A stretch of DNA of 64,000 nucleotides from an uncultured Methanosarcinaceae archaeon (lineage in GTDB: Archaea; Halobacteriota; Methanosarcinia; Methanosarcinales; Methanosarcinaceae): NCBI GenBank assembly GCA_963727895.1, contig CAVSHT010000004.1, forward strand, positions 96,001 through 160,000, given 5' to 3'. Below the pieces are notes generated by a model. It was given only the letters and a program-made list of their open reading frames with translations. It made no database searches and was not told the DNA's origin. Shown here in pieces: positions 1,141 to 60,848 of the stretch. Each line of letters begins with the position of its first letter. Positions within the stretch are counted from its first letter, which is position 1. The position numbers were made by a program, and so were the translations under genes.

Positions 1141-2127
<987 letters not shown>

Positions 2128-2147
2128 ACATAATTGGGGGCATAAGA

Positions 2148-2783
2148 TTGAAAGTATTATTAGTAAACGGAAGTCCACATGAGAAAGGCTGTACCTATAC
2201 TGCTCTTTCCGAAGTAGCAAAGACTTTGAATGAAGAAGAGATTGACACAGAAATTTATTGGATCGGAAAAAAGCCTCTTACTGGGTGCACTGCCTGTAAG
2301 AGCTGCGCCAAAACAGGAAGATGTGCATTTAATGACCGTGTCAATGACTTCCTTGACATTGCCAAAGATGCCGATGGATTTATTTTCGGTTCTCCGGTGC
2401 ATTATGCATCCGCAGGTGGTGCGATTACATCTTTTATGGATTGCGTTTTCTATACCGACCTGCAAGGAGGACGACAGTCTTTTTATCTGAAACCAGTGGC
2501 AGCAGTTGTTTCCGCAAGGAGAGCGGGAACGACAGCAACACTTGACCAGCTCAATAAGTATTTCACCATTTCGGAGATGCCAATTATTTCTTCCCGCTAT
2601 TGGAATATGGTTCATGGAGCAAAACCTGAAGATGTGAAAAAAGACCTGGAAGGATTGCAGATCATGCGTGTGCTTGCATGGAATATGGCATGGTTCCTGA
2701 AGTGCAAGGAGGCTGGCACGAAGGCTGGCGTACAGCTTCCGATGAAAGAAAAAAGCATCTATACAAATTTCATTAGGGAATAA
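2148..2783 (+). CDS. Flavodoxin-family / iron-sulfur flavoprotein (Isf-like)
   Basis: NGSPH, CxxCxxCx5C, GSPVHY. Confidence 0.85.
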   Translation: MKVLLVNGSPHEKGCTYTALSEVAKTLNEEEIDTEIYWIGKKPLTGCTACKSCAKTGRCAFNDRVNDFLDIAKDADGFIFGSPVHYASAGGAITSFMDCVFYTDLQGGRQSFYLKPVAAVVSARRAGTTATLDQLNKYFTISEMPIISSRYWNMVHGAKPEDVKKDLEGLQIMRVLAWNMAWFLKCKEAGTKAGVQLPMKEKSIYTNFIRE

Positions 2784-2838
2784 TCATTAATTGAAATCTT
2801 TGAATGTTAATAGACAAAAAGAAAGTGAGAGGCAAGAA

Positions 2839-3369
2839 ATGACTAACTTAAAAGATCAGAAATGTCTTATTGCTTATTTTTCACGTGAGGGGAATAACTA
2901 TGTCAGTGGCAAGATCGTGAATTTGCCTGTCGGCAACACAAAAGTAGTAGCCAACATGATCCGTGAAATAACAGGAGGCAATGTTTTCCAGATTGATACA
3001 GTAAAGTCTTATCCTAAAGATTATTCTGCAACCACCAACGTAGCAAAAAAGGAATTGAATGAAAATGCCAGACCTGAGCTTACCAGCCACGTGGACGACA
3101 TGGAGTCGTATGACGTGATATTCTTGGGTTACCCTAATTGGTGGGGAACGATGCCAATGGCTGTCTACACATTCTTGGAAGAATATGACCTTTCCGGAAA
3201 GACCATTGTTCCATTCTGCACACATGAAGGAAGCGGAATGGGCCGCAGTGAAAGTGATATTGCAAAGCTTTGCCCTAAAACAACACTTTTGAAAGGGCTT
3301 GCTATTCACGGTTCACGTGTAAGTGCTGCAAAAAAGGATATTGAAGGCTGGTTGAACAAATTAGCATAA
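2839..3369 (+). CDS. Flavodoxin (Flavodoxin_4 type); ATG at 2839 is the likely start
   Basis: AYFSREG, GNT, GYPNWWGTMP, PFCTHEGSG. Confidence 0.85.
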   Translation: MTNLKDQKCLIAYFSREGNNYVSGKIVNLPVGNTKVVANMIREITGGNVFQIDTVKSYPKDYSATTNVAKKELNENARPELTSHVDDMESYDVIFLGYPNWWGTMPMAVYTFLEEYDLSGKTIVPFCTHEGSGMGRSESDIAKLCPKTTLLKGLAIHGSRVSAAKKDIEGWLNKLA

Positions 3370-3390
3370 ATTCATACAGGAGGCTAAAAA

Positions 3391-4533
3391 ATGACAAAAA
3401 AATTAGGTTTTGGCTGTATGAGATTGCCACTTCTGGACAAAGATGACCAGACATCATTTGACACAAAGACACTGAACAAATTGGTAGGTACATTTCTGGA
3501 AAAAGGCTTCACTTATTTCGATACAGCTTATACATACCATGGATTTAAGAGTGAGGAAGCTGTCAAAGAGGCTCTGGTAAAAAGACATAACAGAGATGAA
3601 TTCGCTCTTGCAACGAAACTTCCCCCCAGAATGTTAAAATCAGCGGATGATCATGAAAGGATCTTTAACGAGCAACTGGAAAATTGTGGTGTTGAATTCT
3701 TTGATTATTACCTGCTCCACAATGTTGGTGTAAGTGCCTATGAACAGGCATGTAAATATGATACATTCGGTTTTGCATTGAAGAAAAAGGAAAAAGGCAA
3801 AATAAAGAACGTGGGTATGTCTTTCCATGACACTCCGGAATTGCTGGATGAGATTCTGACCGCTCACCCGAAATTTGATTTTGTTCAATTGCAGATCAAT
3901 TACATTGACTGGGAAAATCCAGGTATCCAGTCAAGAAGATGCTATGAAGTGGCAAGAAAACATAACAAGCCAATTGTTGTAATGGAACCCATCAAGGGTG
4001 GAAATCTTGCAGCAGTTCCAAAAAAGGCGGAAGAATTGATGAAAGCATATGACAAGGATGCTTCAGTTGCTTCTTGGGCTATCAGATTTGCTGCCAGTCA
4101 GGAAGGTGTCATGATGGTACTCAGCGGCATGAATACCATGGAACAGGTTCTTGATAATACTTCATATATGGCAGACTTTAAACCCCTGAACGAGGAAGAA
4201 TACAGGATTCTCGACCAAGTAATTGATATTATAAATGAAGATACTGCGATTCCCTGCACAACATGCAGATATTGTGAAGCAGGCTGTCCTAAGAATATTG
4301 CGATACCGGACTACTTTTCATTATATAATAGCGCAAAGCGTGCTGTGACTGATAATATTTCAAGCCAGTTTGTTTACTATCTGAACCTCACTTCAAATCA
4401 TGGCAAGGCTAGCGATTGCATAGACTGTAAACAATGTGAAAAGGCATGTCCTCAGCATCTGAAGATAACAGAATATCTCAAAGATGTGTCCGCGGAATTT
4501 GAAGCTGGAGGACCGGCATTACCGACAAAATAA
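3391..4533 (+). CDS. Aldo/keto reductase with C-terminal 2x[4Fe-4S] domain
   Basis: LGFGCMRLP, FDTAYTYH, CxxCxxCxxxCP twice. Confidence 0.9.
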   Translation: MTKKLGFGCMRLPLLDKDDQTSFDTKTLNKLVGTFLEKGFTYFDTAYTYHGFKSEEAVKEALVKRHNRDEFALATKLPPRMLKSADDHERIFNEQLENCGVEFFDYYLLHNVGVSAYEQACKYDTFGFALKKKEKGKIKNVGMSFHDTPELLDEILTAHPKFDFVQLQINYIDWENPGIQSRRCYEVARKHNKPIVVMEPIKGGNLAAVPKKAEELMKAYDKDASVASWAIRFAASQEGVMMVLSGMNTMEQVLDNTSYMADFKPLNEEEYRILDQVIDIINEDTAIPCTTCRYCEAGCPKNIAIPDYFSLYNSAKRAVTDNISSQFVYYLNLTSNHGKASDCIDCKQCEKACPQHLKITEYLKDVSAEFEAGGPALPTK

Positions 4534-14596: not shown

Positions 14597-14731
14597 GGCA
14601 GTGTACCAAAAGTTTTGTAAGTGCGACAAGAAGTTATGTCATAAATTGCCTTGTGCTACTCTTTCCATTTAGAGTAACCCTATTATGAGGTGCATCAGCA
14701 GTAATGCAGTTGTGCTAAGCTCATAAGGCAA
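14597..14731 (+). mobile_element. IS256-like terminal repeat followed by the 5' ~110 nt of a group II intron (relic)
   Basis: GGCAGTGTACCAAAAGTTTTGTAA|GTGCGACAAG..., near-identical to the reverse complement of ~58360-58491. Confidence 0.85.
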
Positions 14732-14880
14732 GGTTGTGGTGCAAAAATAATATTTCCGCAGTTTGATACTATAATTCTTACCTTTTGTACCATTTTCCTG
14801 GTGATGAGATTGATTAACATTCTTAATTGTGAAGGCTTTCAGTGATTTTATAAAATGGTCTGATTTTTTGCAACGGAACC
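14732..14880. mobile_element. IS6-derived MITE (~150 bp)
   Basis: Degenerate GGTTGTGGTGCAAAAA ... TTTTTGCAACGGAACC; right half similar to 48057..48206. Confidence 0.7.
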
Positions 14881-39857: not shown

Positions 39858-40034
39858 CCCTAGCAGATGACCAAAACTAGACTTTCAGGTTTCTCCACAT
39901 TGTCTTATGAGCTTAGCACAACTGCATTACTGCTGATGTACCTCATAATAGGATTACTCTAAATGGAAAGAGTAGCACAAGGCAATTTATGACATAACTT
40001 CTTGTCGCACTTACAGAACTTTTGGTACATTATC
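39858..40034 (-). mobile_element. IS256-like terminal repeat followed by the 5' ~150 nt of a group II intron (relic)
   Basis: Minus strand GATAATGTACCAAAAGTTCTGTAA|GTGCGACAAG...; matches ~58315-58491. Confidence 0.85.
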
Positions 40035-56042: not shown

Positions 56043-56341
56043 TGAATTTCTCCCCAAAATTAAATTATAATTATATAGTTAAATATATTTTCTATATTAG
56101 GTACTGTAAACTGTTTGGAATTTTGTAATCATTTAACTTATTTGCGAATGATTATTAACAAATGATCAAAAAAGATACGAACCGTTTGGTATTTGTTCGC
56201 ATATACTTTTCATGGATAATGGACTTGTTGGGCAGTGTCGCAAATTTGCTGTAAATTTGAAGTCAAGTTTTTGTGTATTAGGGGAAAATTGATCTTATGA
56301 TGTGGAATTTTCTACTCAATAACTTCTTGAGATTTGTGATT

Positions 56342-58467
56342 GTTGAATAAGAAAGAGCGATTGCTCGCTCTCCCTCTTCTAAGAACCGGACTTGAAAGTT
56401 TCCCTTCATCCGGCTCAAGTGTTCTATAACCCTTTCTGTATCAGGCAGCAGTTTTTTTTCAAACGGATTGACTTTTCCTTGAACTTAATTTATTATGACG
56501 TTCATGGAAGTAGTCGATATCAAGAAATGGATTCATTTGCAGTTTTAAAGGAATGTGTCTATGGATTTTAGTTTTGGATAAAAGCAACAAACTGTTTCTT
56601 TCTGTTCTGAAGTTCCATTTTCGTGTAGCACTTTGCTTCCAATATTTGTTGATAATCCAATTTTTGGATTTGTTTGGATGTCTTCTTTTAGCCCATCTCC
56701 ATAACATTTCCCACATTCGATGGTCAAGTGTCTGGAATGTTTCAGAAGAGACCACTGAATTATGATAGTTAGTCCAACCTCTAATTATTGGATTTAGTTT
56801 GGAAATTAAGTTATCTTGGGACCATGCTATCCCTTTTCTTAAGGTTTGACTAATTGTTTCAGTGAATCTTTTAATGGACTTCTTGGAAGGCTTGGTCAGT
56901 AGCTTGCCTTTGTACTCGCGAAAATTCCAGCCCAGAAAGTCGAAGCCTTCATAATATTTGTGATAAGAGTTTTATCATCAGACAGTTCAAGACCTCTTTC
57001 TTTAAGAAAAACAGCAATCTTATCTTTGATTTCTCTGGCAGTTTCTTCTGAATTAGCAGTTACTATGAAATCATCGCAGTACCTGATGAAGTTAATCTTG
57101 GTTGAATTCTTTTTTTTTAGGGTATTCATCCAAAAGTAACTTCTCAAGACCGTCCAATGTCATATTAGCCAAGATAGGGGAGATCATTCCGCCTTGTGGT
57201 GTGCCTGCTTTTGTTGGATTTGTGTGACGTTTGTAAATAAATCCTGCTTTGAGAAATTGAATTAATACTGATTTTTCCATTGGAATATTGGCCAGTAACC
57301 ACTGATGATTAATGTTATCGAAACACCCTTTAATATCGCCTTCTAAAATCCATTGCGCTGAATTTTTCTTGCTTAGACATAGAAAGATTTGCTCACAAGC
57401 ATCCTTAGTACTTCGGTGTTTTCTAAAGCCAAAGGACCTTATATCAGACAAGGTTTCAGCTATGGGGTCAAGAGCTAATGCGTATAAAGACTGCACAGCT
57501 CTATCATACATTGTAGGGATACCTAAAGGACGTCTCTTCTTTTTACCAGGTTTATTAATGAAAACTCTTTTGAGGGGTTTAGCTTTGTATCTTTTATCAG
57601 TAAGAATAAGAACAGCTTTCATCCTAGAGTCGGGTGTTAGCCATTTCTCACCATCGATTCCAGATGTCCTTTTTCCTTTATTTTGAATGACTCTTCTTAC
57701 TGCCAATAGTTTGGCAGAATAGAAATGTGTCAGTAAATATTGTAATCTCTTAATAAGGTTCCATTTGTTTTGTAAAACTGCTTTTGTAATTCGGGTTTGC
57801 AACTTATTAACGCTTTTCTCTACTTTATGCCAGTTGATACTTTTCTATTTCTGGGAGAGATAAGCGTCTGTAAGCTTCTTATCCTGAAGGGATATCGTTG
57901 AAATACTTACATTCAGAAGTTTGCCTCCTTTCATACAATAGAACACCATCAGTAAGTCTGCATCCTTTCGGATCAAGGCAAAGTTTGAACCTCTATCCAA
58001 TTCATTACAAATTGACATTCGCTTTTTACTGAATCCTATACCCTCTATGCAATTAATTCCCTTCACAGAGTTTCTACCCTTTTTTTTTAATTAAAAGGAG
58101 CATATAGGGCTTACCAAGTTTTATGTCACAAATAATGTAAATGTTTTAGAAGCCATCTATAGACCGGAAAGTGTATGTCCATTTTCTGCGACGTCTGTAA
58201 CACCATCGCACCCTGCTTTCATACCGTTTGGTTCAAGCGTATCAGTCTAGTTTCGCTTGTCATGAGTCACGACCCGTACAATGATTCAACATATGTTTCT
58301 TCATAGCATTTTTACCCTAGCAGATGACCCAAGTTAGACTTTCAGGCTTTTCCACATTGTCTTACGAGCTTAGTACAACTGCATTACTGCTGATGCACCT
58401 CATAATAGGATTACTCTAAATGGAAAGAGTAGCACAAGGCAATTTATGACATAACATCTTGTCGCAC
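56342..58467 (-). ncRNA. Group II intron, full length
   Basis: 5' GTGCG; domain V GAGCCGGATGAAGGGAAACTTTCAAGTCCGGTTC (56383-56416); 3' ...TTCAAC; EBS1 hairpin ~58187-58210. Confidence 0.9.
56459..57933 (-). pseudogene. Group II intron reverse transcriptase/maturase, no endonuclease domain; TAG at 57845 and two frameshifts
   Basis: RPLGIPT..DR, GDIKGCFDNI, GTPQGG.ISP.LAN, RYCDDF, FDFLG, domain X GWTNY. Confidence 0.9.
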
Positions 58468-58554
58468 TTACAGAACTTATGTTACACTGTCACTTGTTGC
58501 CTCTGATGGAACAAAGGTTCTCACAATTGCAGAATACAATCAATTTATTAATTT

Positions 58555-59294
58555 GATATTGATAACCAAAAATAGTTATCTTTTATTAGAAAGTATATTT
58601 CTGCATGAATTGCCCCAGATGCAATAGTTCTAATCACAAAAAGAATGGTATAGTTGGTGGTCATCAACACTATAAATGTCATGATTGTGGCTATAACTAT
58701 ACAGTAGAGCTAAAATCAACTGCTTTTTCCACTTCTGTCAAAAAACAGGCTTTACAACTCTATCTTGAAGGATTAGGCTTTCGCTCAATAGGAAGAATTT
58801 CAGGGGTGAGTCATGTTTCTGTCCAAAGATGGATAAAGAAATTTGGTCAGGAGTTAGAGGCCCTAAAAAGTGAAAATGAGATATCTATTGTTGAAATGGA
58901 TGAGATGCATACTTACATAGGTAACAAAAAAAATATTGTTGGATCTGGATTGCTGTTGATAGATTTGGGAAAAAGTTCATCAACTGCTCTTTTGGTAACA
59001 GAGGAACAGAAACTGGAAAACTACTCTGGGAAAAATTGAAGAAAAAAGAGATTGGAGAAGTGATGACAGATTACTGGAGGGCATATGCAGAGTTTATTCC
59101 TGAAACGATTCATACTCAATCAAAAGCAGAAACATTTACAGTTGAGGGATATAACAGCATATTGAGGCATTTTCTGGCAAGATTGAGAAGAAAAACAAAG
59201 TGTTATACGAAGAGTCTTGAAATGCTAAAGTACTCGGTTATTATATTGATGAAATACAGAAATAAAGAACTAGATATAGTTAAGTAACAATGCC
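58555..59294 (+). mobile_element. IS1-family element (InsA 58605..59039; InsB in the -1 frame at an A8 run)
   Basis: CPRC...CHDC; A8 at 58926-58933; AACAATGCC end. Confidence 0.9.
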
Positions 59295-59370
59295 AAATTA
59301 TAATGTGAAAATATAATGTAAAAACGTTTCTTGATCTGTGAACTTAAATCGTTACTTGAGGGTGAAATTA

Positions 59371-60765: not shown

Positions 60766-60848
60766 TGCGGGAGAAGGGATTCGAACCCCTGAACGCCTAC
60801 GCGAAACGATCTTGAGTCGTTCACCGTTGACCACTTGGTTACTCCCGC
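60766..60848 (-). tRNA. tRNA-Leu(CAA)
   Basis: Cloverleaf GCGGGAG...AACGA-CTCAAGA-TCGTT, long variable arm, GTTCGAATCC. Confidence 0.95.

Follow-up and report, generated by a model that had tools for sequence, protein, structure and literature searches.

The window analysed here is a stretch of 64,000 nucleotides (nt) of contig CAVSHT010000004.1 (positions 96,001 to 160,000, forward strand) in assembly GCA_963727895.1, which represents an uncultured archaeon of the Methanosarcinaceae, an mcrA-bearing, methane-metabolising host. On the minus strand of the window lies a group II intron inserted in the terminal repeat of a small transposon; this transposon is a 135-bp miniature inverted-repeat transposable element (MITE) with IS256-type ends and without a gene of its own. 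The intron very probably belongs to a lineage that homes into such ends, and the present work concerns how the target is recognised, how widely the same arrangement recurs and in what state the window copy is found. The following features delimit the intron and its host element:

56342..58467, minus strand: group II intron, 2126 nt, 5' GTGCG ... AAC 3', supported by Rfam models and by an intron-free copy of the element
58468..58491, minus strand: 5' exon, the outer 24 nt of the left terminal inverted repeat, with intron-binding site 1 (IBS1) at 58468-58474 and IBS2 at 58475-58481
56231..56341, minus strand: 3' exon, the other 111 nt of the miniature element
56231-56254, plus strand: right terminal repeat of the miniature element, with CTGTAA at 56249-56254
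56223..56230: right target-site duplication, 8 bp, ACTTGTTG (plus strand), identical to 58492-58499
58492..58499: left target-site duplication, 8 bp, identical to 56223-56230

The intron boundaries were fixed by an intron-free copy of the element in the same genome (C5:181771-181905), which is colinear with the 5' exon joined to the 3' exon. By this copy, the junction TCTGTAA / AATCAC, predicted in a preliminary description made from the letters of the window, is borne out at the DNA level. The 5' exon ends in ...GTTCTGTAA at 58468, and GTGCGAC begins immediately after it, at 58467 on the minus strand; the conserved group II ends (5' GUGYG ... AY 3') are represented by GTGCG at this position and by AAC ending at 56342. 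Domains V and VI were recognised by RF00029 at 56418..56342 over the full model (1-77) with 60.3 bits (cut-off 40), and a segment of domain I was recognised by RF02012 at 58431..58287 with 60.6 bits (cut-off 34). It had been proposed that covariance models would place the exon-binding site 1 (EBS1) within domain I; the match to this domain was indeed obtained, but it covers intron nt 37-181 and ends before both EBS1 and EBS2. The elements that take part in target recognition were therefore delimited as follows, with the evidence for each:

58187..58210, minus strand: EBS1 hairpin of domain I (sequence, RNAalifold consensus, compensatory stem changes)
58194..58200, minus strand: EBS1, TTACAGA, intron nt 268-274 (7/7 Watson-Crick pairs with exon -1..-7, covariation in relatives)
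58261..58267, minus strand: EBS2, ACTCATG, intron nt 201-207 (6/7 with exon -14..-8, CATAAGT)
58201, minus strand: delta, G (nt 267), directly 5' of EBS1 (covaries with nt 192)
58276, minus strand: delta' candidate, a C at nt 192 within the 5' strand of a presumed coordination loop (covaries with delta)
58159, minus strand: EBS3 candidate, U (nt 309), in a column that covaries with 3' exon +1

The hairpin that had been put forward for EBS1 is present on the minus strand at 58210..58187 as TGCGATG-GTGTTACAGA-CGTCGCA, with a 7-bp stem that includes one G.U pair and with a 10-nt loop. The TTACAGA of this loop (58200..58194) is, as previously noted, precisely complementary to the seven nucleotides that close the 5' exon. 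The chance of such a 7-mer match at one fixed register is about 1e-4. TTACAGA occurs once in intron nt 1-600, and at least one occurrence was found in 181 of 5000 dinucleotide-preserving shuffles (3.6%); the folding energy of the hairpin is ordinary (-9.7 kcal/mol, z = -1.31), 19 of 200 shuffles folding equally well. Since both the match and the energy are weak on their own, the window sequence by itself is suggestive, and it is the comparison with relatives that is decisive.

Homologues were searched for in 41 genomes, comprising that of the window and 40 relatives, and homologous introns were found in 29 of them; their 5' ends and flanks were retrieved and domain I was aligned. Among nine introns that differ in target, positions 4-10 of the loop form in-register pairs with positions -1 to -7 of the intron's own exon. 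The cognate pairs number 7, 6, 6, 7, 5, 6, 6, 4 and 7 of 7 (mean 6.0), whereas the non-cognate loop/exon combinations (n=72) average 2.58 of 7. A tenth intron, L010, reaches 7/7 by eye, one G.U pair included. Additionally, the EBS1 stem retains its 7 pairs in 12/12 sequences, two or more standard pair types being found at every one of the 7 positions, and the hairpin is contained in the RNAalifold consensus of 11 homologues. Because the loop covaries in register with the introns' own exons and the stem shows compensatory changes, this comparative sequence evidence identifies the loop at 58210..58187 as the true EBS1.

The preliminary description had left EBS2 without a confident assignment, and it can now be placed in ACTCATG. 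By eye, the homologous stretch is complementary to the intron's own exon in seven of the nine distinct-target relatives (L003, L007, L009, L019, L024, L026 and L027) and is not complementary to it in L022 and L028. Regarding the 3' exon, the delta G is unable to pair with its first base, A. Nucleotide 267 covaries instead with nt 192, G being accompanied by C in 4 sequences that form one lineage and U by A in 8 others; because this covariation amounts to a single evolutionary event, the placing of delta' at nt 192 is tentative. In the nt 309 column, T is found where 3' exon +1 is A (L001, L003, L004, L009, L022 and L057) and C where it is G (L010, L011 and L025); L024, with T in this column, was excluded from the count, its 3' boundary and +1 base being uncertain. 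These columns tentatively suggest that the 3' exon is read by EBS3 at nt 309 and not by the base adjoining EBS1. Reading of the 3' exon through EBS3 is described for IIB introns in a review (PMC4424553).

The clearest illustration of this recognition is offered by the sister intron L003 (G001:C15, intron at locus 1501-3630), which has an intact open reading frame (ORF) of 514 codons and is 87% identical overall to the window intron. Its EBS1 and EBS2 loops are both changed, and its target site differs and matches the changed loops, with 6 pairs for EBS1 and 7 for EBS2. This site is intergenic and partly palindromic, and no terminal repeat was seen when one was sought near it. Judged from these paired changes in loops and site, L003 is a case of natural retargeting.

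In the IS256 family, the terminal inverted repeats measure about 24-26 bp and the target duplications 8-9 bp. The element that hosts the window intron displays 24-nt repeats and 8-bp duplications, and Transposase_mut is found in elements sharing its repeat. The intron lies after nt 24 of the terminal repeat, and IBS2 plus IBS1 correspond to repeat positions 11-24. At least nine copies of the miniature element were aligned, at 73-96% identity; it measures 135 bp, has no ORF and shows terminal inverted repeats and a target duplication. Intron-free 135-bp copies exist, such as the one used above to fix the boundaries, and the 8-bp target duplications are perfect at both full intron copies of this genome, in the window and on contig C5. 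The same repeat type bounds a degenerate element of 1372 bp in this genome (C14:28023-29394; Transposase_mut, E 7.6e-52, 5.7e-14 and 2.4e-19) and, in a related genome, an intact element of 1.27 kb (L002), whose Transposase_mut gene encodes 375 aa (E 4.9e-109) and whose right end matches. The idea that the intron is directed at IS256-like ends was upheld by these two elements. The further suggestion that the opposite end of the host element might serve as a second homing site stood in part: CTGTAA is present there and gives 6/7 pairs with EBS1, but EBS2 reaches only 3/7, and this end is therefore a poor site for the window copy. Ends of this opposite sequence type are occupied in other genomes (L023/L050, L040 and the 3' exon of L004).

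The transposase gene adjoining the intron-bearing element (58605-59287, plus strand) was considered as the host and rejected. It belongs to the IS1 family, and the IS1 copy begins at 58558/58559, 67 bp past the end of the miniature element; the end sequence of this IS1 copy is, by eye, unrelated to the intron-bearing repeat.

The junction between repeat and intron recurs within this genome and beyond it. In this genome, the 5' junction follows the repeat's ...TGTAA in 4/4 cases, namely the window copy, a second full intron copy at C5:394183-396315 that is 95% identical to it, and two fragments in the window. Across the genus, the exact 16-nt junction has 13 occurrences in 9 of 59 genomes, and the reversed control pattern has 0. 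The 24-nt repeat is present in 12/12 junctions with enough upstream sequence, with the tip octamer at no more than 2 mismatches in 9 of them and at 3 mismatches in the other 3, as scored by eye. One of the junctions in the genus lies in the left end of the intact element of L002; the intron there is in sense and precedes the transposase start codon by 58 nt. A junction BLAST over 284 genomes of the order, in which three candidates per genome were scored and the counts are consequently lower bounds, revealed additional matches across the junction, within the genus and, once, in a second genus of the family. These sequence comparisons support that the intron lineage homes into IS256-type ends.

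The two fragments in the window are 5' intron pieces (14621-14734, plus strand, 114 nt; 40010..39858, minus strand, 153 nt) of 94-95% identity that start exactly after an IS256-type repeat and are cut off downstream, with other repeated DNA within about 150 nt beyond the cut. Most of the junctions in other genomes are likewise 5' fragments, of 29-250 nt, with the exact 5' junction kept (L021, L046, L050, L051, L055 and others). Abortive reverse transcription truncates the end opposite to that lost in 5' fragments; a likelier origin than abortive reverse transcription is later deletion, perhaps tied to the transposon end. Several relatives of the intron are ORF-less, and in one of these (L024; G039:C44, locus ~171-201) the 5' exon is formed by the opening 30 nt of a different group II intron, a nested, twintron-like arrangement.

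The protein encoded by the window intron is preserved as a pseudogene with two frame lesions:

56459..57844, minus strand: pseudogene of the reverse transcriptase (RT)/maturase in three reading-frame pieces, without endonuclease domain (Pfam RVT_N, RVT_1 and GIIM)
57110..57118, minus strand: A9 tract that disrupts the reading frame, being 2 nt short of the tract in intact L003 (comparison with L003)
56952..56953, minus strand: second frameshift, one base missing relative to 4/4 other copies (C5, L002, L003 and L004)

A nuclease domain was sought by Pfam and found neither in the intron protein nor in its intact relatives. For structure comparison, two protein halves were taken from the better-preserved second copy on C5, and these scored 292 and 203 bits against TeI4h (6ME0) and 117 and 35 bits against LtrA. 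The protein is far closer to TeI4h than to LtrA or the IIC RTs, its similarity to TeI4h being about equal to that among known chloroplast-like (CL) proteins, and the alignment extends no further than TeI4h residue 481 of 562. TeI4h is classed as CL/IIB1 (PMC2882425), and archaeal intron proteins have been reported in clades C, D, CL1A and CL1B (PMC8919778). Judged by similarity to one solved CL protein, the window intron would combine a CL-type protein without endonuclease with a IIB structure. It had been supposed that the missing endonuclease pointed to a class D-like RT. This is unsupported, since the protein resembles the CL/IIB1 protein TeI4h, in a comparison set that included no class D reference; this high similarity argues against class D, and introns lacking an endonuclease are not confined to that class.

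With its two frameshifts, the window copy has most likely lost its mobility. In the C5 copy, the A tract is likewise 2 nt short, and a base is inserted upstream of it (window-intron nt 1320). The window and C5 introns differ at 104 of 2133 columns, the ribozyme parts (14/605 in the 5' ribozyme, and 2/116) being better conserved than the ORF (88/1412); synonymous divergence between the two is 0.20, with a ratio of nonsynonymous to synonymous substitution rates (dN/dS) of 0.13. The A tract is located between RT blocks; its length varies in every repeat-targeting copy, reading A9, A5GA4, A12GG and A11 in the window, L042, L002 and L004, respectively, and the tract is out of frame in 4/4 of these, with dN/dS among copies of 0.08-0.13. 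In relatives with other targets (L003, L005, L006 and L009), the tract is interrupted and in frame. The variation could reflect a mutational hot spot, slippage-dependent expression or a homopolymer assembly error.

As to transcripts, the RNA material consisted of 5 RNA runs of 21, each covering a small share of the stretch, and the contigs of 4 RNA runs were examined. One contig of metatranscriptome run X13 (600 nt, depth 53.7) contains an intron-free miniature element with other flanks. As its flanks differ from those of the window, it corresponds to an intron-free copy of the element and says nothing on splicing; the miniature element family may be transcribed, or the X13 signal may be carried-over DNA. 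In run X15, 56274 is joined to 58468, skipping 2193 nt, and two smaller joints are also present. RNA contigs of low depth cover portions of the intron and may derive from relatives or from DNA.

Taken together, it is considered highly probable that the window holds a copy of a mobile IIB/CL-type intron without endonuclease, the lineage of which retrohomes into the terminal repeats of IS256-family elements and their miniature derivatives, and that this copy is now RT-broken. In the proposed course of events, EBS2 and EBS1 of the intron RNA would recognise repeat positions 11-24 and EBS3 position 25, and reverse splicing would take place between positions 24 and 25. The intron is always oriented inward from the transposon end and, as a consequence, an intron in the left end of a full element sits in the transposase leader, in sense. 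Since an endonuclease is lacking, we infer that nascent strands at replication forks presumably serve as primers for the DNA copy. The window copy would have entered the 135-bp miniature element and later lost its RT through the two frameshifts.

Several observations weigh against this reading. By tblastn, the assembly (84% complete) yielded no further cognate RT and, the RT being broken in both full copies, mobility in this genome would be historical. No splicing signal was found among the contigs of the 4 RNA runs, the sole 56341-58468 join being that of X13 with its non-window flanks. A census of repeat sites, made with a loose 24-mer pattern and including chance matches, gave 75 repeat-like 24-mers in the genome, at 39 of which EBS1 could form 7/7 pairs, and only 3 of those 39 are occupied; the exact window repeat variant is present 3 times, 2 of them occupied, and a perfectly matching site at C5:181882 is empty. 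The EBS2-exon pairing carries a central C.A mismatch, L026 has 4/7 EBS1 pairs in register, or 6 after a shift of one position, and L022 has 6/7 with an internal mismatch and without an EBS2 match. Finally, the class call is based on a single solved CL protein, with no class D or E reference among those compared.

These points were weighed together with three other explanations. That the loop is not EBS1 and its 7-nt match a coincidence would agree with the frequency of the 7-mer in shuffled sequences, with the unexceptional hairpin energy and with an Rfam model that, spanning intron nt 37-181 only, neither confirms nor places EBS1; such a coincidence has a negligible probability, as it is refuted by the loop-exon covariation in distinct-target relatives and by the compensatory changes in the stem. 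Another account holds that the intron entered an IS256-type end once and that all later copies arose by transposition of the composite of transposon and intron. It would explain why a perfect 8-bp duplication flanks both the composite at 56231-58491 and the C5 copy, and why the two full copies share a rare repeat variant, and the outer 24 nt of the repeat are left intact by the intron. However, junctions are found in differing hosts and repeat variants, which include miniature elements, the intact 1.27-kb element and several subtypes. Additionally, the two occupied miniature elements of this genome differ at 13/135 positions, whereas the window element differs from the empty copy at 5/135, and the exons have diverged by about 0.10 where the introns reach 0.20 at synonymous sites. 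At neutral sites, therefore, divergence is greater in the introns than in the elements that host them, and the introns have evolved as functional genes; this fits separate insertions better than the duplication of a single composite. The fit of EBS1 and EBS2 to the repeat, together with the retargeted L003, also indicates insertion guided by base pairing, and spread by hitch-hiking only is accordingly held to be very unlikely; we infer retrohoming as the mode by which the lineage would spread.

The remaining alternative concerns the present state of the window copy, which would still be active, its ribozyme splicing and being mobilised in trans or by a slippage product of the A9 tract. The better conservation of the ribozyme parts relative to the ORF and a dN/dS of about 0.1 among copies that all have an out-of-frame A tract speak in its favour. 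Moreover, ORF-less relatives in other genomes imply help in trans, and mobilisation in trans is documented for introns of Thermosynechococcus elongatus (PMC2882425). Nevertheless, the second window frameshift (56952/56953) lies outside any homopolymer, the C5 copy has its extra inserted base upstream of the A tract, the assembly contains no intact cognate RT and the perfectly matching target is empty. Activity at present is therefore improbable, though less so than hitch-hiking alone, and the retrohoming lineage with a window copy that is now inactive is preferred.

Other mobile DNA is present in the genome as well. The IS1-family element that adjoins the intron-bearing element spans 740 bp (58558-59297, plus strand) and carries a zinc-ribbon/helix-turn-helix ORF and a DDE_Tnp_IS1 fragment. 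It has 201 matches of at least 700 nt in the genome and 301 in all, which total 179 kb at a median identity of 91% and make up about 4.9% of the 3.67-Mb assembly. In the degenerate IS256-type element on contig C14, the transposase is interrupted by a separate repeat of about 105-110 bp (G000 C14:28259-28368), which recurs at no fewer than 7 other loci with 76-96% identity and is probably another miniature element. Further along the window, a tRNA gene with a long variable arm is located at 60766-60848 on the minus strand (RF00005, 54 bits).

No description of a group II intron that targets terminal repeats was found in open-access main text, supplements and the bacterial group II intron database being outside the scope of that search. 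The intron RmInt1 of Sinorhizobium meliloti is of class D, has a protein without endonuclease and uses a homing site inside the coding region of ISRm2011-2; the window intron resembles it in the missing endonuclease and in having its homing site in an insertion sequence, and differs from it in a target that is not within the coding region and, probably, in class. Targeting of insertion sequences is a widely used strategy of group II introns, as exemplified by E.c.I4 in transposase genes of the IS3 family (PMC3522654). E.c.I4, as described there, and the window lineage both have a multi-copy insertion sequence as homing site, which supplies abundant targets that are not essential and carriage by a second mobile element; in both, occupancy is incomplete and fragments are common. 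However, E.c.I4 is directed at transposase coding sequence (PMC3522654), whereas the window lineage, in an archaeal host, is directed at the non-coding terminal repeat of the IS256 family. Being non-coding and terminal, this site is carried by protein-less miniature elements and by both element ends.

The protein closest to that of the window intron among those with a solved structure (6ME0) belongs to the TeI3/TeI4 introns of T. elongatus (CL/IIB1). TeI4h has an endonuclease domain, whereas the window protein stops before it. The insertion sites of the T. elongatus introns lie in an insertion sequence or within other introns (PMC2882425). As in the window lineage, close relatives among TeI3/TeI4 differ chiefly in their EBS sequences and ORF-less derivatives exist, and some are inserted at a conserved position of an insertion sequence or another intron; their host is a thermophilic cyanobacterium, and a terminal-repeat target is not mentioned in the portions of that report considered here (PMC2882425). 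Within the same broad archaeal taxon as the window, group II introns of Methanosarcina acetivorans home into each other, with flanking exons that lack coding ORFs (review, PMC4424553). Both groups home into mobile DNA, and a nested case is known here too (L024); the targets described for M. acetivorans are other group II introns, IS256 ends not being mentioned in the review sections concerned (PMC4424553).

In this system, the target of a group II intron is encoded in two short loops, as demonstrated by sequence comparison, and a sister intron of 87% identity has been retargeted through exactly those loops. The arrangement is layered, an intron lying inside a miniature transposon in an archaeal genome crowded with insertion sequences. 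Since targeting of insertion sequences by introns is already established, the general interest of the finding is modest. The homing site is nevertheless a transposon terminal repeat and not a gene, and its presence at both element ends and in non-coding derivatives represents a strategy slightly different from that of introns that target insertion-sequence genes, and one that may account for the persistence of such introns in archaeal genomes. For annotation, short 5' intron fragments after ...TGTAA mark old IS256-type ends.

A bolder view, which we regard as unlikely though somewhat less so than present activity of the window copy, is that the lineage is an obligate hyperparasite of the IS256-type elements of these archaea, with its protein output gated by the hypervariable A tract. 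If this were true, the inverted repeat would offer a target in both orientations, one of which always faces the lagging-strand template, and protein-less miniature elements would be usable as targets too. The intact outer 24 nt of the repeat would leave the composite still able to transpose, and an A tract out of frame in 4/4 copies despite a dN/dS of about 0.1 would imply transcriptional slippage or phase-variable expression.

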